From: Escherichia coli
GTDB lineage: Bacteria; Pseudomonadota; Gammaproteobacteria; Enterobacterales; Enterobacteriaceae
Length of the DNA: 64,000 nt
Reading direction: 5' to 3' (one strand)
NCBI RefSeq assembly: GCF_013315695.1
Contig: NZ_CP054353.1
The notes under the pieces are model-generated. The model did not search any database. It worked only from the letters and a program-made list of their open reading frames with translations, and was not told the DNA's origin. Position 1 is the stretch's first letter, and each line of letters begins with the position of its first letter. The position numbers and the translations under genes are program-made. Of this stretch, positions 3,447-45,546 are shown piece by piece.

Positions 3447-5165
3447 TTACCTTAGCCAGTTCGTTTTCGCCAGTTCGATCACTTCATCACCGCGTCCGCT
3501 GATGATTGCGCGCAACATATACAAGCTGAAACCTTTGGCCTGTTCGAGTTTGATCTGCGGTGGAATGGCTAATTCTTCTTTGGCTACTACCACATCCACC
3601 AACACCGGACCGTCGATGGAAAAGGCGCGTTGCAGGGCTTCATCGACTTCAGAGGCTTTTTCCACGCGAATACCCGTAATTCCGCACGCTTCGGCAATGC
3701 GGGCAAAGTTGGTGTCGTGCAGCTCAGTACCGTCTGTCAGGTAGCCTCCGGCTTTCATCTCCATCGCCACAAAGCCCAGCACGCTGTTATTAAAGACGAT
3801 AATTTTCACTGGCAATTTCATCTGCATTACTGAGAGGAAATCGCCCATCAACATACTGAAACCGCCATCGCCGCACATGGCGACCACCTGACGTTCCGGC
3901 TCGGTTGCCTGCGCACCCAGCGCCTGCGGCATGGCGTTAGCCATCGAACCGTGGTTAAACGAACCTAACAGACGACGCTTGCCGTTCATTTTCAGATAAC
4001 GTGCCGCCCACACCGTTGGCGTACCAACGTCACAGGTAAAGATGGCGTCATCGGCGGCAAAATGACTAATTTGCTGCGCCAGATATTGCGGGTGAATGGC
4101 TTTCTCGCTCGGTTTAGCTAAATCATCCAGCCCTTTGCGGGCGTCGCGGTAATCTTCCAGCGCTTTATCCAGAAACTTGCGATCGGTTTTTTCTTCCACC
4201 AGTGGCAGCAATGCCCGCAGGGTTGATTTGATATCGCCGACCAGTGCCATATCTACCTTGCTATGCGCGCCGATGCTGGCTGGGTTGATATCAATCTGAA
4301 TAATTTTGGCATCGGTCGGGTAGAACGCGCGGTAGGGAAATTGCGTGCCGAGCAGCACTAACGTATCGGCATTCATCATGGTATGGAAACCTGACGAGAA
4401 GCCGATTAATCCCGTCATTCCGACATCATACGGATTATCGTATTCGACATGCTCTTTACCGCGCAGGGCATGAACAATAGGCGCTTTAATTTTCCCGGCA
4501 AACTCAACTAACTCTTTATGCGCCCCCGCGCAGCCGCTGCCACACATCAGGGCGATATTGCTGGAATAACGCAGCAGTTGCGCCAGTTTGCGTAACTCTT
4601 CTTCTTCCGGCGTCACGACTGGTTGTGGCGCATTATACCAGTGGGTAGTTGCCCCTTCTGGTGCAGGTTTTAACGCCACGTCGCCCGGTAACACGACAAC
4701 GGAAACGCCACGGTTTAGCACTGCTTTGCGCATAGCAATTGCCAGCACTTGTGGGATCTGCTCTGGGCTGGAAACCAGCTCGCAATAGTGACTACATTCG
4801 CGGAATAGCTCTTGTGGGTGGGTTTCCTGGAAATAGCCGCTGCCAATTTCGCTGGAGGGAATATGAGCGGCAATCGCCAGTACCGGAACGTGATTGCGGT
4901 GGCAATCGAACAGGCCGTTGATTAAGTGCAGGTTGCCGGGGCCGCACGATCCGGCACAGACCGCCAGTTCTCCGCTAAGTTGTGCTTCAGCGCCAGCGGC
5001 AAACGCCGCCACTTCTTCATGCCGGGTGGACATCCACTCGATGGTGCCCATGCGATTAAGACTGTCACTAAGACCGTTCAGAGAGTCGCCCGTGACTCCC
5101 CAGATGCGTTTCACTCCTGCCGATTCGAGTGTTTTGGCGATATAAGCTGCAACCGTTTGTTTCAT
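3447..5165 (-). CDS. poxB: pyruvate oxidase (ubiquinone-dependent pyruvate dehydrogenase), TPP/FAD enzyme
   Basis: 572-aa [34 protein letters not shown]..., TPP-binding GDGG motif. Confidence 0.9.
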
Positions 5166-25062: not shown

Positions 25063-26349
25063 TTACCCCACTTTCTTATGGGGCATACATGGGACACTTT
25101 CAGATAGTCTTTTGTTAAGGAGTTCTATCTGTTCGTGATTGTTGTCTTTCATCCATGCTCCGTAAACATTGAATACCATTTGTGCGTTTGTGTGGCCCAT
25201 CTGGCTTGCGATAAAACTAGGATTAGCTCCAGCGGCAAGTGACCAGCATGCATAAGTATGCCTGGATTGGTACGATTTTCTGTGTCTCAGACCTGCGTGT
25301 TTTAAGATACTTGTCCATGACTCCCTGATGGAGTCAACCTTATAGTGCGGTCCGGAAAACTGCCGCTGTTTTATTACCTGAGGACTAAAAACAAAAGTGC
25401 ATTTATGCACAGTACTTCTCCCATATTCCCTCTGCTTTACCTCTACAGAATGTTGCTTTCCAAGCATGGTCATTTCCGCCTGACTTTTAAGAGCATCAAT
25501 AGCTGGTTGAACCAGATGAATTGTCCTTCCGGTGCCAGCATCGGTTTTTGGTGGAGTGAATTCGCCAAGTTTTGTATAATTCCTACGGATGGTTATAGTC
25601 CTTGCTTTAAGATCTATATCTTCCCATGCCAGCGATACCAGCTCCCCGTGACGAATACCCGTGTATACAGCGAGAATCCACAGGTTTTTTGTTTGTTGAT
25701 GACGGCAAGCCTCAATAAAACGAATAAATTCGTCACGGGTGAGAGGATCTGGTTTTACCTTGGACTTTTTTAAGGGAGCCAGACCGTTAAATGGGTTTCC
25801 TGAGGTATAACCATTATCTGTTGCAAATTGAAACATTCCAGCTATGGTTGTCATATAGTAGTTTACCGTGACCACTGAGCGCCCTTTTATGGAAGAAGTC
25901 TTTCCATTAGAAAGTTTTTGGTAACCGGTCAACAAATCTCTCCTTACGAAAAGTAAATCCTCTTTTGTTATGGATGAAACCAGTTTTTTTTCACCTAACA
26001 TTGGTAACATGTTTTTAATTACTGACTGGTAACGGTTAAGTGCATTCGCACAAATCTCAATTTTCTTAAGGTCCAACCATTTTTCCGAAAGTGCCTTAAC
26101 GGTTATCTCTCTTTTTCCCAGACCAAAGTGTTTCAGGTTAGGGGAATTAGGGAACTGCGCGGAGTAGTCGAAACTCCCCATTCTGATTGCAAAACAAACG
26201 GAAGTGCGAAGTTCACCAGCGATCTTCCGGTTTTTGGCTGTGTCAGGAACACCGAGGTTTTCTCTGACACGTTTGCCATTATAGTGAAACCATATACGGA
26301 GTGATCCTCCATGGTTTTCAACGCCTGTCGGGTATGATGCGTTACTCAT
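25063..26349 (-). CDS. int: tyrosine-type site-specific integrase
   Basis: 428-aa ORF with R (GIRHGEL), HxxR (SRHTYA) and catalytic Y (VFNVYGAW) motifs; adjacent to the attL junction. Confidence 0.9.
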   Translation of the reverse strand: MSNASYPTGVENHGGSLRIWFHYNGKRVRENLGVPDTAKNRKIAGELRTSVCFAIRMGSFDYSAQFPNSPNLKHFGLGKREITVKALSEKWLDLKKIEICANALNRYQSVIKNMLPMLGEKKLVSSITKEDLLFVRRDLLTGYQKLSNGKTSSIKGRSVVTVNYYMTTIAGMFQFATDNGYTSGNPFNGLAPLKKSKVKPDPLTRDEFIRFIEACRHQQTKNLWILAVYTGIRHGELVSLAWEDIDLKARTITIRRNYTKLGEFTPPKTDAGTGRTIHLVQPAIDALKSQAEMTMLGKQHSVEVKQREYGRSTVHKCTFVFSPQVIKQRQFSGPHYKVDSIRESWTSILKHAGLRHRKSYQSRHTYACWSLAAGANPSFIASQMGHTNAQMVFNVYGAWMKDNNHEQIELLNKRLSESVPCMPHKKVG

Positions 26350-40259: not shown

Positions 40260-40646
40260 TTGTGGAGAAAGTTGATGCGTGATATTCAAATGGTTCTTGA
40301 ACGTTGGGGGGCATGGGTGGCAAATAATCACGAGGATGTGGAATGGTCATCTGTTGCTGCAGGTTTTAAGGGATTAATTCCTTCGAAAGTAAAATCCCGC
40401 CCGCAATGTAGCGATGACGATGGCCTGATCATTAGCTCTGCGATGACAGTTCTTAAGAAAAAGGAACCGTATCAATACGAATTACTGGAAATGTATTATG
40501 TGTATGGGGTTACATTACGGGTGTTGGGGGTAAAACTGGGGATATCACTTAATCAGGTTGTTATCAGACTGCAGAAAGCTGAAGGGTTTATTGACGGTTG
40601 TCTGGCAATGTTGGGGGTATCTTTAGAAATTGATTGTTACATATAG
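40260..40646 (+). CDS. late-gene antiterminator Q
   Basis: 128-aa ORF resembling the short Q proteins of E. coli cryptic prophages (QuuD-like); true start may be MRDIQMVLERW at 40275; sits directly upstream of the late region. Confidence 0.7.
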   Translation: MWRKLMRDIQMVLERWGAWVANNHEDVEWSSVAAGFKGLIPSKVKSRPQCSDDDGLIISSAMTVLKKKEPYQYELLEMYYVYGVTLRVLGVKLGISLNQVVIRLQKAEGFIDGCLAMLGVSLEIDCYI

Positions 40647-40685: not shown

Positions 40686-40718
40686 AACCTCCTGATGATA
40701 CCTGTTCATTGGGAGGTT
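40686..40718 (+). promoter_or_regulatory. RBS-sequestering hairpin upstream of the 214-aa cargo gene
   Basis: aacctcc(40686-40692) pairs with ggaggtt(40712-40718), which contains the GGAGG RBS for the ATG at 40722. Confidence 0.45.
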
Positions 40719-41339
40719 ATTATGGATAAAAATGTAGAGCATGTATTAGTTGATGCAATTGAAAATAAGCAATCTTTAACAGTCGTTTACTTAGGAGGGA
40801 GCCAGCCCGGAACATTAAGGAATATTTCTCCGATTAGTATAAATGGGGATAAATTGCGGGCAAGATGCCATAGTTCTGGAGCAGTAAAGGTTTTCAATCT
40901 TGGGAAAATACAGTTACCCAGTGACTCCTGCGCGGTATCTATGCACTATGGAGATTTAGAAGTTAAAGCTTATGAGACGATGCAGAGCGTAAATGACAAC
41001 TTTCATGCCCTTTATCCTGAAGGACGATGGGGTGTTGATTTTAATGAGCATCGCTTTGCTTTATTTGATTTTTTTAAAAACGGGAAACGAAAAAAAACGG
41101 CATTTATGGCAATTGAGTTCAGGGAAAGAGATGAAGAGAAAATAATAACAGGTGTAACAATTGATATTGGTATATCTGGAACAGTGATTTCTGAGAAGTC
41201 CCGAATCCCAAAAAGACGACCATGGGTAGTGGTTGGTCCCGAACACGGAGAATACAGTACTTATTCAACTTTGGACAAGGCTGCTACAGCGTTTTTTGAG
41301 AGGCTTTCGTTGATAGCATCCGGCCTGGAAGATAATTGA
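40695..41339 (+). CDS. hypothetical cargo protein downstream of Q, family not recognised
   Basis: 214-aa ORF, AT-rich; probable start MDKNVEH at 40722 preceded by a GGAGG RBS; segment YLGGSQPGTLRNISPISINGDKLRARC...FNLGKI could be a small beta-barrel ligand-binding domain. Confidence 0.5.
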   Translation: MIPVHWEVIMDKNVEHVLVDAIENKQSLTVVYLGGSQPGTLRNISPISINGDKLRARCHSSGAVKVFNLGKIQLPSDSCAVSMHYGDLEVKAYETMQSVNDNFHALYPEGRWGVDFNEHRFALFDFFKNGKRKKTAFMAIEFRERDEEKIITGVTIDIGISGTVISEKSRIPKRRPWVVVGPEHGEYSTYSTLDKAATAFFERLSLIASGLEDN

Positions 41340-41468
41340 TTTTATGTTTGGTATTCAGAGTTCGCCGTGCTTAAGAAAGTCAAGATTCTAAAAATACTGA
41401 ATGAGCTACTTGTGTTATAACAAAAATGCTATTAGTGTGTTAAGAGTGGTTACTTCGCCACACAACTT

Positions 41469-41494
41469 AAACCCGCCACTGAGCGGGTTTTTTG
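41469..41494 (+). terminator. rho-independent terminator
   Basis: acccgc-cactga-gcgggt stem-loop followed by TTTTTT. Confidence 0.75.
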
Positions 41495-41617
41495 TACCTG
41501 TAAACTTGGTGCAGTACAGTAAACACGCTGGTGGTCGTGAATACTGGCTTTTTATCTTGCTGGCTTTTTAGACAAGAGTTATTGGTATGTCACGTTAACC
41601 GGAAAGGGTAAAAAGAC

Positions 41618-41815: not shown

Positions 41816-41949
41816 AGGCTTTTTATTTGTGGTGAATGGGCGGCTGGTGGGGGGGCGACACCTGTCAGTCCTTTGCTTATGTGTTGATGATAATTTACCT
41901 TTTGGGGCTATAATTGAGCTAACCAATTGCTAATGAAAGTAAAATTATA

Positions 41950-42663
41950 ATGGCTGTTGTCTGTTCAGTTATCATGGTTTGCTCCCCAATTAATATTTTT
42001 CTTGAAAAGGATACGTTGTCACTTAAGCCAGGCTCAGTTGTTCTGGCCACCAAATGCATCAGGGAGCTTTTCCTTATGCATTATGGCAAAGTTAAAATTG
42101 TCGATATAAGCGAATCCGTCGTAAGTCAATATCTGGAAAGTCAGCATAAGCTGACGAGGACTCGTCTGACTGACATTCCGCTTTACCTGTTGCTGGAACC
42201 CAACAATCCTGCGTTGGCTGCGGCTTTAATTACCAGCCAGGGATTTTCCGGAGAGGCCACGGATATGTTTCTTATGATGGCCTGCCTGTCTCTGTTTGAA
42301 ACAGATGAACGGATGTCATTGTTTTTAAGTGGATGTTTATCCAGCATAAGTGCCAAAGTCAGGGCGATAATTCAGACAGATATATCAGCAAGCTGGACGC
42401 TTGGTGCGATTGCTCTACAGTTGCATATGAGTGAGAGTTTGTTAAAGACAAAACTGAAAAATGAAGGGGGCATGTTCAGTCGCTTGTTGCTGGAAGAGCG
42501 GATGCGTGTTGCTGTAAATATGTTATGTTCCCGGCATGGATATGGACAGGCTATAGCAGAAAAATGCGGTTATTCAAGCAGGTCCTACTTTATTTCTGTA
42601 TTTCACCGCTATTATGGCTTCCCGCCAGACAGATATGTATCCAGGCAAGGGCTTGATTATTGA
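41950..42663 (+). CDS. AraC-family transcriptional regulator
   Basis: 237-aa ORF with C-terminal AraC-type dual HTH (WTLGAIALQLHMSESLLKTKLK ... IAEKCGYSSRSYFISVFHRYYGFPP); AT-rich. Confidence 0.7.
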   Translation: MAVVCSVIMVCSPINIFLEKDTLSLKPGSVVLATKCIRELFLMHYGKVKIVDISESVVSQYLESQHKLTRTRLTDIPLYLLLEPNNPALAAALITSQGFSGEATDMFLMMACLSLFETDERMSLFLSGCLSSISAKVRAIIQTDISASWTLGAIALQLHMSESLLKTKLKNEGGMFSRLLLEERMRVAVNMLCSRHGYGQAIAEKCGYSSRSYFISVFHRYYGFPPDRYVSRQGLDY

Positions 42664-42691
42664 TTTTCATCTGATTATTATTTTTTGGCTC

Positions 42692-42767
42692 GGCCCTTTA
42701 GCTCAGTGGTGAGAGCGAGCGATTCATAATCGCCAGGTCGCTGGTTCAAATCCAGCAAGGGCCACCA
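42692..42767 (+). tRNA. tRNA with CAU anticodon (Ile2/Met-type; ileZ-like)
   Basis: Cloverleaf GGCCCTT-TA-GCTCAGTGGTGAGAGC..anticodon loop TTCATAA..GGTTCAAATCC..AAGGGCC-A-CCA. Confidence 0.85.
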
Positions 42768-42774
42768 TCACATA

Positions 42775-42851
42775 CCGCCATTAGCTCATCAGGATAGAGC
42801 GCCAGCCTTCGAAGCTGGTTGCGCGGGGTTCGAGTCCTCGATGGCGGTCCA
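42775..42851 (+). tRNA. tRNA-Arg (anticodon UCG; argN-like)
   Basis: Acceptor CCGCCAT/ATGGCGG, anticodon loop CTTCGAA, T-loop GGTTCGAGTCC, encoded CCA. Confidence 0.8.
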
Positions 42852-42864
42852 TTATCTGTACCCT

Positions 42865-42941
42865 GCGTTATTAGCTCAGCCGGACAGAGCAATTGCCTTC
42901 TAAGCAATCGGTCACTGGTTCGAATCCAGTACAACGCGCCA
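42865..42941 (+). tRNA. tRNA-Arg (anticodon UCU; argO/argU-like)
   Basis: GCGTTATTAGCTCAGCCGGACAGAGC..anticodon loop CTTCTAA..GGTTCGAATCC..CGCCA, close to host argU. Confidence 0.8.
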
Positions 42942-42954
42942 GACTTATTTTTCC

Positions 42955-42980
42955 CGGCTCGCTTTTGCGGGCTTTTTTTT
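42955..42980 (+). terminator. rho-independent terminator after the tRNA cluster
   Basis: gctcgc-tttt-gcgggc hairpin followed by eight T. Confidence 0.7.
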
Positions 42981-43433
42981 AAATGTCTCACAATTCAGAC
43001 GGTTGACAGTTGTCTGTTTTGCGGGGAGTTTGTTAAAAGAAACTGGCATGGTGAATCCCCCTGTGCGGAGGGGCAATCAGCAACTGGTGTTTTGTCACCG
43101 ACCCTTATCCTTTCTGTGCGGGTTCAGGTGCTGATACTGAACTCACCGGGAGGCACCCGGCATCATGTGCATGATGATACAGATACGCGGCTTTAGCCCC
43201 TCTCCGGAGGGGCTTTCTTGTGGGCAAAAAAAAGCCCGAGTGGGTTCGGGCAACAGCATGAGATATACATTTTTATAATCGAATGGATTTTAACCAGAAT
43301 TCATAAGGCTGCGCAACTGCGCGGTCTTTTTCGAATTGCGGGCTGTCGTCTCTCTTCTGCCATTGTCCTGTAACTTCCGGACTTCAGCCCGCTCCTTATT
43401 TTACTCACAATATTATCCCGGCCGGGAGGATTC

Positions 43434-45395
43434 ATGGCATTTAAACACTATGACGTGGTCAGGGCGGCATCGCCGTCAGACCTTGCGAAACGACTGACAC
43501 AAAAACTGAAGGAGGGGTGGCAGCCATTTGGCAGTCCGGTGGCCATCACGCCTTATACCCTGATGCAGGCCATTGCGGCGGAAGGTGATGTCACCACACC
43601 TGTGGTGGTGAAGCCGTCGGATGGAGAAGGCGCAGTTATCAGCAACACCAGCAACCCGGAGTATTACTTTGTTGTTGCCCTGGCCGGGCAGTCAAACGGT
43701 ATGGCGTATGGTGAAGGGCTTCCGCTGCCGGAGACATATGACCGTCCGGACCCGCGTATTAAACAGCTGGCGCGTCGCAGCACTGTCACGCCGGGTGGTG
43801 CGTCCTGTAACTACAATGACATTATTCCTGCGGACCACTGCCTGCATGATGTTCAGGATTTGAGTAAGTTTTCACACCCGAAAGCCAGCGCAGCTCAGTA
43901 TGGATGCGTGGGGCAGGGATTACATATCGCGAAGAAATTGTTGCCGTTTATTCCGGCGAATGCCGGTATTCTTCTGGTTCCGTGCTGCCGTGGTGGTTCT
44001 GCATTTTTGGCGGGCGATGAAGGTACCTTCAGCGAATCCACCGGCGCAAGCGAGACCTCGGCACGCTGGGGTGTAGATAAGCCACTGTACAAGGACCTGC
44101 TTACCCGTACTCAGGCCGCACTGAAGGCCAACCCTAAAAATATTCTGCTTGCAGTGGTCTGGATGCAGGGCGAGTTTGATTTGAAACAGGGTGCATACGC
44201 CACTCAGCCGGGGCTGTTTGATTCCATGGTGGAAAAATATCGTTCTGACCTGTCGGAATTCGGAGGTCAGTGTCTCGGGGGCTCTCCGTCATCAGTTCCC
44301 TGGATTTGTGGCGACACGACCTACTACTGGAAGCAGACTTATTCTTCGCAATACGATGCGGTGTATGGTGCATATAAGACGAAATCCGCAAAAAAAATCT
44401 TCTTTGTGCCGTTTATGACGGATGAAAACGGGCGAAATGTGGGTACCAACGAGCCGTCAGAAGATCCGGATGTTGCGGATATTGGGTATTACGGAGCCGG
44501 TGGTCGAACGGACGCCAAAACCTGGACGACGGCTGACCGTAAAACGCATTTTGGATCATGGGCACGTCGTGGGATTATTTCCGACCGTCTGGCAACGGCG
44601 ATTCTTGTGCATGCCGGGAGAACCGCTGAATTCATTACCGGAAAACAGCCTGATACGGTGAAGCCCACCGGACCTTCCGGTGAAGGTACGGAGAGAGAGC
44701 CGGAAGGTCCGGTCAGTAACCGAACCCTGATGAGTCTGCTGGCGTCCGGCGAAGACCTGGCATCACAGGGCTGGCGCTATTATCACAAACCGGCGAGCGG
44801 AGACAATGTTAACAAAAACATTGCTGAAGCGGTGGTCAGTGATGCGGGGGCTACGGGAGGTAAGGCCCTGCAACTGAATAAACCGGAAAACCACATCTGG
44901 TTTCTGGAGCATGATGCAGCCGGGCAGGGGGCAGAGTTGCTGAAGAAAGGAGGACGTGTGAGCGTACGGTTTAAGTTGCCGGGTTCACTGGTGCCGAATC
45001 AGTTTGCCCTGGGCATTTACTGGCAGTTGTCGTCCCTGCCGGAGGGAGTGACGCTGGCAGAGGAAGGCAACGACATGCTGATGTCCTTCTTTCTGCAGAC
45101 GGATGCGACGAACCTGAACGCGATGCACCACAAGAAGCCGAATGCGAAGCTGGAAACGTTCGGGGTCTTTGATAACGGATGGCACACACTGGCTTTTGAG
45201 TTTGCCGGAAACAACAGCATTCAGGTGACGCCGGTACTGGATGAGAAACGGGGGACGCCGTTCACACTGGTGAAATCTCCGGCATCAGGGGCGGCGGACA
45301 AACTGCAACTGACAGGCATATCAAAGGCGGCGACATATACGCTGCTGATTGACAGTGTGAAGGTGGAAGTGAACAACGCGGATGCCGCGGCATGA
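43434..45395 (+). CDS. nanS-p: prophage sialate O-acetylesterase (NanS-p-like)
   Basis: 653-aa ORF; position and sequence recalled as the esterase found downstream of stx in Stx phages. Confidence 0.65.
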   Translation: MAFKHYDVVRAASPSDLAKRLTQKLKEGWQPFGSPVAITPYTLMQAIAAEGDVTTPVVVKPSDGEGAVISNTSNPEYYFVVALAGQSNGMAYGEGLPLPETYDRPDPRIKQLARRSTVTPGGASCNYNDIIPADHCLHDVQDLSKFSHPKASAAQYGCVGQGLHIAKKLLPFIPANAGILLVPCCRGGSAFLAGDEGTFSESTGASETSARWGVDKPLYKDLLTRTQAALKANPKNILLAVVWMQGEFDLKQGAYATQPGLFDSMVEKYRSDLSEFGGQCLGGSPSSVPWICGDTTYYWKQTYSSQYDAVYGAYKTKSAKKIFFVPFMTDENGRNVGTNEPSEDPDVADIGYYGAGGRTDAKTWTTADRKTHFGSWARRGIISDRLATAILVHAGRTAEFITGKQPDTVKPTGPSGEGTEREPEGPVSNRTLMSLLASGEDLASQGWRYYHKPASGDNVNKNIAEAVVSDAGATGGKALQLNKPENHIWFLEHDAAGQGAELLKKGGRVSVRFKLPGSLVPNQFALGIYWQLSSLPEGVTLAEEGNDMLMSFFLQTDATNLNAMHHKKPNAKLETFGVFDNGWHTLAFEFAGNNSIQVTPVLDEKRGTPFTLVKSPASGAADKLQLTGISKAATYTLLIDSVKVEVNNADAAA

Positions 45396-45546
45396 TAAAA
45401 AAAGGCCGCCAGCAATGAAGGAAAGGGATGAACTGTGTCCACTACATGAATGCTGGCGGCTGGTAAAACGACCACGATGACACCGAAGTTTGCGATATTT
45501 TTCTACAAAAATAAGTAAATCATGTCAACTATCACGGTGAGAAACC

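Follow-up and report, generated by a model that had tools for sequence, protein, structure and literature searches.

A tRNA trio, a predicted convergent small RNA pair and an unoccupied cargo slot in the late leader of a lambdoid prophage of Escherichia coli

Results

The tRNA trio and its terminator

The 64,000-nucleotide (nt) stretch of Escherichia coli DNA analyzed here (contig NZ_CP054353.1; hereafter the window) carries a lambdoid prophage in which three tRNA genes, a spacer of 492 bp (42942-43433) and a sialate O-acetylesterase gene (43434-45395) follow one another on the plus strand. The esterase, of 653 amino acids (aa), is of the nanS-p type (Pfam DUF1737, SASA and DUF6645), is homologous to L0105 of phage 933W and is the first conserved late gene. 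Inside the spacer we recognized two candidate genes for small RNAs (sRNAs) in convergent orientation, one of STnc100/EcOnc27 type on the plus strand (42989-43225) and one of the AsxR/AgvB/EcOnc03 family on the minus strand (43226-43281), followed by a structured leader that reaches the esterase (43305-43433). It is very probable, in our judgment, that the locus is the late-operon leader module of a prophage of the Shiga toxin (Stx)-phage lineage, with its main cargo slot unoccupied and holding the tRNA trio, the convergent sRNA pair and the structured esterase leader.

An earlier note, made from the sequence and without database searches, had proposed that three phage tRNAs (CAU, Arg-UCG and Arg-UCU) lie here, closed by a strong terminator, and this was borne out, the tRNAs by ARAGORN and Rfam and the terminator by a terminator scan. 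ARAGORN found exactly three tRNA genes in the window, all on the plus strand: tRNA-Ile2 with anticodon CAU (ileZ-type, 42692-42767), tRNA-Arg with anticodon UCG (argN-type, 42775-42851) and tRNA-Arg with anticodon UCU (argO-type, 42865-42941), which score 72, 56 and 64 bits, respectively, on the Rfam tRNA model (gathering score, 29 bits). The order CAU-UCG-UCU, read on the late strand in the interval from Q/pR' to the lysis cassette, is that of the ileZ-argN-argO cluster of Stx phages. The CAU tRNA is identical to 933W ileZ at 75 of 76 positions, the sole difference being U32 for C32; the UCG tRNA matches argN at 74 of 77, and the UCU tRNA matches argO at 75 of 77, with an A6.C67 mismatch and A37 where 933W has a G6-C67 pair and G37.

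When aligned with ileX and metT of K-12, the CAU tRNA was seen to have the ileX-type pairs C4:G69 and C5:G68 and not those of the metT type. As these pairs are the major TilS identity elements of E. coli (PMC11947777), the CAU tRNA is, to judge from its sequence, an Ile2 and not a Met tRNA, and it would read AUA after lysidine modification. ARAGORN labels it Met, as does the Prokaryotic Genome Annotation Pipeline (PGAP) in RefSeq genomes with 100% identity; copies that are 99.7-99.8% identical are labelled tRNA-Ile.

A promoter scan revealed a pT-like promoter on the plus strand (TTGATT, a 17-nt spacer and TATTAT; 42653-42681) that ends 10-11 nt before the mature 5' end of the first tRNA, a geometry that agrees with the pT annotated in 933W. 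Among 77 relatives, the -35 element, the 17-nt spacing and TATTAT stood at a fixed distance from the trio in 23 of 23 distinct upstream contexts, which supports a predicted Q-independent expression of the trio from a conserved promoter. The cluster is closed by an intrinsic terminator (42956-42980, plus strand), made of a 7-bp stem at 42956-42973 with five G-C pairs and a run of T8 (-11.5 kcal/mol, z = -2.9), and homologous to the element annotated in 933W as "terminator upstream of the stx genes".

The codons cognate to the trio (ATA+AGA+AGG+CGA+CGG) were counted per thousand codons, a comparison of phage and host that the earlier note had suggested, and they were indeed enriched in the phage genes: 14.4 in the flanking host genes (7,022 codons), 35.3 in the phage early genes, 32.3 in the late ones and 67.8 in the three morons that immediately precede the tRNAs. 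The excess over the host was significant in all three phage classes (p < 1e-10), with cognate rare codons at 2.3-5 times the host level. An AraC-family open reading frame (ORF) and two neighboring ORFs had the highest AUA/AGR use in the window, ~5 times that of the host; this AraC-family moron sits directly upstream of the tRNAs that would decode its rare codons. The trio would decode AUA, AGA/AGG and CGA/CGG, codons that the host uses rarely and that phage and moron genes use more, and would relieve rare-codon limitation for both kinds of gene.

The cargo slot and its right flank

In pairwise blastn, window positions 42688-42979 aligned to the tRNAs and terminator of 933W (locus L001, 2873-3165; 93.5% identity), and positions 42984-43541 aligned to L001 4501-5053 (79.6% identity), a segment that runs from 41 nt past the stxB stop codon into the start of the esterase gene. 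What lies between them is 4 bp in the window (42980-42983) and 1,335 bp, that is, stx2AB with its flanks, in 933W. The layout of a Stx2 phage without the toxin operon, which had been proposed beforehand, is therefore supported by 933W homology on both sides of a 4-bp junction. Because the spacer aligns downstream of stxB, the cargo (moron) slot is this clean 4-bp junction, and the ~450-bp spacer is its conserved right flank, also present in toxin-carrying phages. In this respect the "empty site" of the earlier note held as to the clean junction, but its place is 42980-42983 and not the 450-bp spacer. The search for similarity of the spacer to stx-flanking DNA that the note had proposed gave 77-80% identity to the 445 bp between stxB and the esterase gene in 933W, Sakai and 224 other phage records. 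Altogether, matches to the spacer came from 353 phage records, of which 224 covered 80% or more of it; most are Stx1- or Stx2-converting phages.

The Stx2-phage layout and the homologous flanks might also be expected if the spacer were the decayed remnant of a former stx operon eroded in place. However, the whole spacer aligns downstream of 933W stxB and not to stx, with a gap of 4 bp against 1,335 bp, and searches with the 1,335-bp cassette of 933W (blastn, word size 7) and with the StxA and StxB proteins (tblastn) returned only chance-level matches in the spacer and in the whole window. These results refute decay in place, to which we give practically no credence. Of the two contents that had been suggested for the spacer, regulatory RNA was found (two Rfam sRNA families), but remnants were not, as no stx trace appeared at permissive thresholds. 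Neither stxA nor stxB is present between the tRNA terminator and the sRNA pair, and the prophage does not count as Stx-converting. We also considered whether an STnc100 fragment lies upstream of stxA, from a 19/23-nt likeness between the left end of the 933W cassette and the hairpin at 43113-43135; this candidate was discarded, since the Rfam match, which lies over the tRNA and terminator, reached no more than 18.9 bits (E = 0.33).

Slot occupancy was surveyed in 120 viral contigs, for which a 32-mer of the esterase leader served as the anchor; the measure was how far the last tRNA lies from a conserved CACAATTCAG box, and it could be taken in 76. The slot was empty, with 47-49 nt as in the window, in 34 loci; in 25 the distance was ~515 nt and comprised tandem extra STnc100-like units with no coding-sequence (CDS) cargo, the first unit abutting the terminator as in the window; eight carried stx2AB (~1,377 nt), three had short inserts of 75-106 nt with no CDS, and six carried other cargo, namely a TerB-like 143-aa ORF with a small membrane ORF, a 142-aa lipoprotein ORF, or other ORFs. 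In the remaining contigs, either no tRNAs lay within at least 1,500 nt (12 loci) or the contig was too short or the box was not found (32 loci). In these leader-anchored relatives the cargo always lies between the T-run of the terminator and the sequence ...TTAAAT..CT directly followed by CACAATTCAG. Of 5,426 complete E. coli genomes, 1,039 had the empty junction as one contiguous match to a junction-spanning query. The tandem units deserve a separate mention: two or three STnc100-like units stand between the tRNA terminator and the esterase in many relatives (locus L006, 351-1028, and 24 similar loci), and those of L006 score 165.4, 136.3 and a weak 30.1 bits in Rfam.

The same flanks border the slot in cargo-bearing and in empty relatives, several cargoes have a right flank ending in ...TTTTAAATGTCT, a sequence that in the empty form joins the T-run of the terminator without a seam, and lambdoid mosaics readily swap such modules, a module-wise assortment that we observed here. 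From this it could be argued that the slot was not simply never filled but was vacated by precise deletion or recombination from an ancestor with Stx or other cargo. Against it, the empty form is the commonest state (34 of the 76 measurable relatives, to which come 25 whose sole difference is tandem STnc100 units, and 1,039 complete genomes), no scar separates loss from never having gained, and only a phylogeny could show the direction of change. We regard a vacated slot as possible but doubtful.

The convergent small RNA pair

The spacer had been described as ~450 bp of hairpin-rich non-coding DNA, and this description held: it measures ~453 bp from the end of the terminator to the esterase ATG, its hairpins fold better than shuffles, and it contains no ORF with family support, only short overlapping ones. 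Between 40200 and 43600 there are 12 terminator-like sites, compared with 2.8 +/- 1.7 in shuffles, and three of the 12 fall in the spacer.

The plus-strand gene (42989-43225) is matched by Rfam RF02076 at 43017-43225 with 131.7 bits (gathering score, 47; E = 1.1e-29) over model positions 1-206 of 206. The 933W copy, used as a control, scored 207.7 bits, and the window copy is a diverged member. Its terminator hairpin lies at 43195-43214 (-18.2 kcal/mol, z = -2.2). Two candidate 5' ends were found. One, at ~42991, is located 7 nt past a -10-like TTAAAT (42979-42984) and would give a transcript of ~230 nt, which fits EcOnc27; this TTAAAT, at the left edge of the block, is kept in all cargo classes and reads TGTAAT in 933W. 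The other, at 43046, is located 7 nt past an invariant extended -10-like element TGTTAAAAG (43031-43039), would give a transcript of ~176 nt and corresponds to the mapped PasD2 5' end (GCAUGG...).

RNAalifold applied to 14 diverse variants yielded a closing helix, GCAUGGUG/CACCAUGC, around three hairpins and then the terminator. The 31 STnc100 variants compared are segmental mosaics in which the helices are invariant and the linkers are swapped. A small ORF beginning at the core AUG (43046-43132) was considered and judged non-coding: it varies from 8 to 44 aa, has no Shine-Dalgarno sequence, and only MVNPP(V/E)RRG is conserved, which is the invariant hairpin. As the ORF is short and lacks a Shine-Dalgarno sequence, conservation of the core appears to act at the RNA level. 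Ribosome coverage of the EDL933 STnc100 copies ranges from 0 to 3.2 and is mostly low; a leaderless micro-peptide may nevertheless start at the invariant GC-AUG of the core.

The minus-strand gene (43226-43281), hereafter the anti-sRNA, is 56 nt long and ends in the hairpin GCCCGAACCCACUCGGGC followed by a U8 tail, with its 3' end ~3 nt from the STnc100 match. Its predicted promoter, also on the minus strand, consists of TTGCGC (43316-43311), an 18-nt spacer and TAAAAT (43292-43287), with the start at 43281; in the alignment 933W has the same two hexamers, and there mapping identified the 5' end of AsxR as a primary start site (Tree et al., 2014). The 5' parts listed in the supplement of Tree et al. 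(2014) read CGATTATTAAACGAGTATCTCATGCAATTGCCCG... for AsxR, AAATGACAATGCAAGTATCTCATGCTGTTGCCCG... for EcOnc03 and CGATAACACAACAATATCAGTATCTCATGCTATTGCCCG... for AgvB, and the window allele reads CGATTATAAAAATGTATATCTCATGCTGTTGCCCGAACCCACTCGGGCTTTTTTTT. The variable 5' region of the window, CGAUUAUAAAAAUGUA, is closest to that of AsxR, CGAUUAUUAAACGAGUA, and is changed at U8>A and at nt 12-16, whereas the terminator hairpin and 3' body are identical to those of EcOnc03. By its sequence, the window anti-sRNA is thus an unnamed fourth allele with an altered AsxR-like 5' region and an EcOnc03-type body. The cassette family is present in 868 of 5,426 genomes, and the window allele (at least 95% identity) was the best match in ~178 of them, for example, S88, and was never annotated. 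Most of the leader-anchored relatives have in the AsxR slot an unrelated convergent sRNA, which we call type B (e.g., L002 ~4750-4860, minus strand), with the hairpin GCCCGCGUCUCCCAGCGCGGGC and U7 preceded by ...CACGUUUUGUUGUUUAUUCCUUGCC; type B has no Rfam family and matches the candidate E2348C_1409.E2348C_1408.IGR found in enteropathogenic E. coli (EPEC) by ligating and sequencing interacting RNAs (RIL-seq).

Several observations weigh against our reading of the locus as a module with a working tRNA trio and sRNA pair. In the trio, the acceptor stem of tRNA-Arg(UCU) carries the A6.C67 mismatch, which may lower the function of this tRNA, so that the copy may be slightly impaired or drifting. 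In the STnc100-type gene, the terminator has a poor U-tract (UUUCUU), the 5' end is ambiguous between two candidate promoters, and covariation for the fold is thin (three of 43 pairs compensatory, with a single-sequence z of -1.7); because there is so little compensatory change, membership in the family rests on the covariance-model score. The perfect hexamer TTGACA (43003-43008) was rejected as its -35 element, since 24 nt separate it from the conserved -10-like element and a poor hexamer stands at the 17-nt spacing. The anti-sRNA matches RF02703 (AsxR) at 43229-43281 with 63.0 bits, exactly at the gathering score of 63, and RF02702 (AgvB) with 43.4 bits, below the threshold of 56; the AsxR of 933W, as a control, scored 88.1 bits, and the window copy has diverged. 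Finally, pairing of the anti-sRNA with the FnrS terminator loop was weaker than that of AsxR (-5.0 vs. -7.7 kcal/mol), neither exceeded shuffles, and U8>A breaks the center of the FnrS duplex. An unrestricted FnrS duplex search was uninformative, and the CACAACA motif of AgvB, a mimic of GcvB targets, is absent from the 5' region CGAUUAUAAAAAUGUAUAUC of the window. The new allele may, as a smaller possibility, sponge a core sRNA other than FnrS or GcvB.

Lambdoid prophages are known to carry convergent sRNA pairs between a moron CDS and a conserved downstream ORF, and the pair of Sp5, EcOnc27 (plus strand, ~235/247 nt in Sakai) and EcOnc02, which is AsxR (minus strand), is Hfq-bound in both members (Tree et al., 2014). 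STnc100/EcOnc27 is a relative of PasD of EPEC and has been found in outer-membrane vesicles; EDL933 transcribes 11 copies of STnc100, and a northern blot confirmed one of them. EcOnc27 overexpression raised the fimZ and espA transcripts, and its variants were linked to features predictive of hemolytic uremic syndrome (HUS) (PMC12711010).

Could both elements instead be cis elements of the late transcript, serving as terminators, in processing or stability or in translation of the esterase, with the Rfam matches reflecting a conserved leader structure? STnc100 does lie on the late-gene strand within the transcription unit that depends on Q, its helices show near-invariance in place of covariation, its 5' end is uncertain, as said above, it occurs in tandem copies in relatives, and no function has been established in the literature for STnc100 or the Pas sRNAs. 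But discrete Hfq-bound RNAs of the expected size come from homologous loci in uninduced EPEC and enterohemorrhagic E. coli (EHEC), and activity in trans has been demonstrated for AsxR and AgvB (Tree et al., 2014). The anti-sRNA, moreover, cannot be a cis element of the late mRNA, because it is encoded on the opposite strand with its own conserved promoter. We consider the purely cis-acting explanation quite improbable and retain a pair of sRNAs as the preferred reading.

The esterase leader

The final ~130 nt ahead of the esterase gene (43305-43433) fold well as a whole (z = -3.4). On the plus strand they contain a terminator-like hairpin 1 with a U-run (43305-43334; -15.6 kcal/mol, z = -4.2, 0 of 200 shuffles), a long hairpin 2 (43338-43392; -21.3 kcal/mol, z = -4.6, 0 of 200 shuffles) and a small hairpin over the Shine-Dalgarno sequence GGGAGG (43422-43427), before the ATG at 43434. 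No Rfam family matched the leader. A possible homology of hairpin 1 to the PasD2 terminator was set aside: the GGCTGCGCA arm and the U-run are shared, but the global alignment has no wider homology, and the likeness is suggestive only.

In the leader-anchored sample, the mean pairwise identity of the leader was 0.91 against 0.58-0.81 for CDS, a comparison biased by the anchor. A re-test anchored on the esterase showed that the leader assorts as a module of its own and is not universally conserved: in that sample the leader was 91-94% identical beside esterases only 65-69% identical, and it was absent beside many esterases of 99-100% identity. In the leader-less phages, an AT-rich segment of ~420 bp with a minus-strand, low-GC ORF of 111 aa replaces the anti-sRNA and leader (locus L136, 2380-3000; ORF, 2405-2740). 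By its position, with the STnc100 terminator on one side and the esterase ATG on the other, this AT-rich segment marks a putative second cargo slot.

From these features, the leader is likely to be the last terminator guarding the lysis genes in the lysogen and the translational leader of the esterase. The further proposal that 43305-43433 is an undescribed cis-regulatory RNA, gating both transcription and translation into the esterase/lysis cassette and exchanged independently of the esterase body, is a tentative one, and we would sooner bet against it.

The prophage neighborhood

Host genes occupy the window up to ~24.9 kb, and the lambdoid prophage starts at an integrase-like ORF at 25063. 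The module is set in an E. coli chromosome of the human extraintestinal type; isolates from human blood cultures share the 2.1 kb around the tRNAs and spacer at 100% identity, and strain S88 at 99.7%. Upstream of the tRNAs there are, in this order, a DUF968 ORF, the antiterminator gene Q (40260-40646, PF06530), an ORF of 214 aa and low GC (40695-41339, GC 0.40) with only a weak WYL-domain match (E = 0.0096), a pR'/qut/tR' leader-like stretch (41438-41498) with 80.6% identity to 933W that includes the terminator AAACCCGCCACTGAGCGGGTTTTTT (41471-41496), a winged helix-turn-helix (wHTH) ORF of 65 aa, and the AraC-family helix-turn-helix ORF (41950-42663, PF00165 and PF12833, GC 0.44) with a promoter-like site at 41887-41914. 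The 214-aa ORF sits between Q and the 933W-like pR', and in 933W pR' overlaps the end of Q; from the sequence, it looks like an insertion between Q and its promoter. Taken as a whole, the late-leader region does carry cargo, namely the AraC-family moron and two further ORFs between Q and the tRNAs.

Downstream of the esterase come a DUF1378 ORF, a P21-type holin and a lysozyme. Just past the esterase stop codon, a terminator-like hairpin on the minus strand (45396-45480; GCCGCCAGCA...UGCUGGCGGCC and U7; -25.6 kcal/mol, z = -4.3) occupies the same position and strand as PasA and PasC of EPEC, with no sequence similarity to PasA, and may form the 3' terminus of a further sRNA, antisense or convergent. 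A PasA/PasC homologue between the esterase and the holin was sought and rejected, as there was no BLAST similarity and only this unrelated hairpin is found there.

Discussion

By analogy with characterized homologues and with the established late regulation of lambdoid phages, a sequence of events can be proposed for this locus. In the lysogen, the tRNAs and both sRNAs would be transcribed from promoters of their own, with an intrinsic terminator at the end of each unit; the sRNAs, of the Hfq type, would act in trans on host RNAs, as their characterized relatives do, and the anti-sRNA would sponge or destabilize a core sRNA. Three successive terminators would confine the transcription of the tRNAs and sRNAs, such that the esterase, holin and lysis genes stay silent. 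After induction, RNA polymerase modified by Q would start from pR' and read through all the terminators.

The architecture itself is already described (Plunkett 1999 annotation; Tree et al., 2014; Zhu et al., 2026) and is common in E. coli. The novelty here is limited to the unnamed anti-sRNA allele, the unannotated sRNA pair and the undescribed but modest leader module of the esterase. For annotation it matters that the matching RefSeq genomes all lack an entry for either sRNA and that many of them call the Ile2 tRNA Met. The base-level coordinates of the stx2 slot, from the T-run to the CACAATTCAG box, can aid in finding cargo and in tracking toxin gain and loss in surveillance genomes. Since toxin-free prophages of extraintestinal E. 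coli widely carry the toxin-linked sRNA pair, with an anti-sRNA seed allele of their own, the virulence roles given to these sRNAs in EHEC, such as the HUS-predictive variants (PMC12711010), are to be weighed against a wide toxin-free background.

Among known systems, PasD1 and PasD2 of EPEC E2348/69 (Pearl Mizrahi, 2021; Zhu et al., 2026) likewise stand directly upstream of a SASA esterase, and PasD and the window RNA share the 5' core GCAUGGUGAAUCC...GGAGGGGC and the closing helix. Nevertheless, PasD2 scores 41.4 bits on the STnc100 model, its BLAST likeness to the window is confined to 26-29 nt of the 5' core, the UGUGAG seed and terminator context of PasD are absent from the window, and the PasD loci have no convergent anti-sRNA; the short alignment, the missing seed and the score of PasD2 led us to reject the window RNA as a PasD variant. 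STnc100/EcOnc27/sRNA103 is a much closer relative, with the same full-length match, closing helix, three inner hairpins, terminator and place upstream of the esterase; the gap in score between the window and 933W copies comes from other linker segments and another pre-terminator segment. The window anti-sRNA, in turn, shares its position, strand, convergent partner and promoter hexamers with AsxR (EcOnc02), EcOnc03 and AgvB (EcOnc01), and its 56 nt lie within the 51-60 nt of the family, whose conserved 3' region of ~42 nt, hairpin and U-tract, is present (Tree et al., 2014).

The late leader of 933W and VT2-Sakai (Sp5) reads Q-pR'-ileZ-argN-argO-terminator-stx2AB-EcOnc27/AsxR-nanS-p-S-R-Rz. 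The window differs from 933W in that stx2AB is absent and extra morons (the 214-aa, 65-aa wHTH and AraC-family ORFs) lie between Q and the tRNAs, in the alleles of the STnc100 linker segments and of the anti-sRNA 5' region, and in the U32 of ileZ and the A6.C67 and A37 of argO. Common to both are the gene order, the strand, the promoter geometry of the tRNAs and of the anti-sRNA, and the esterase and lysis genes that follow.

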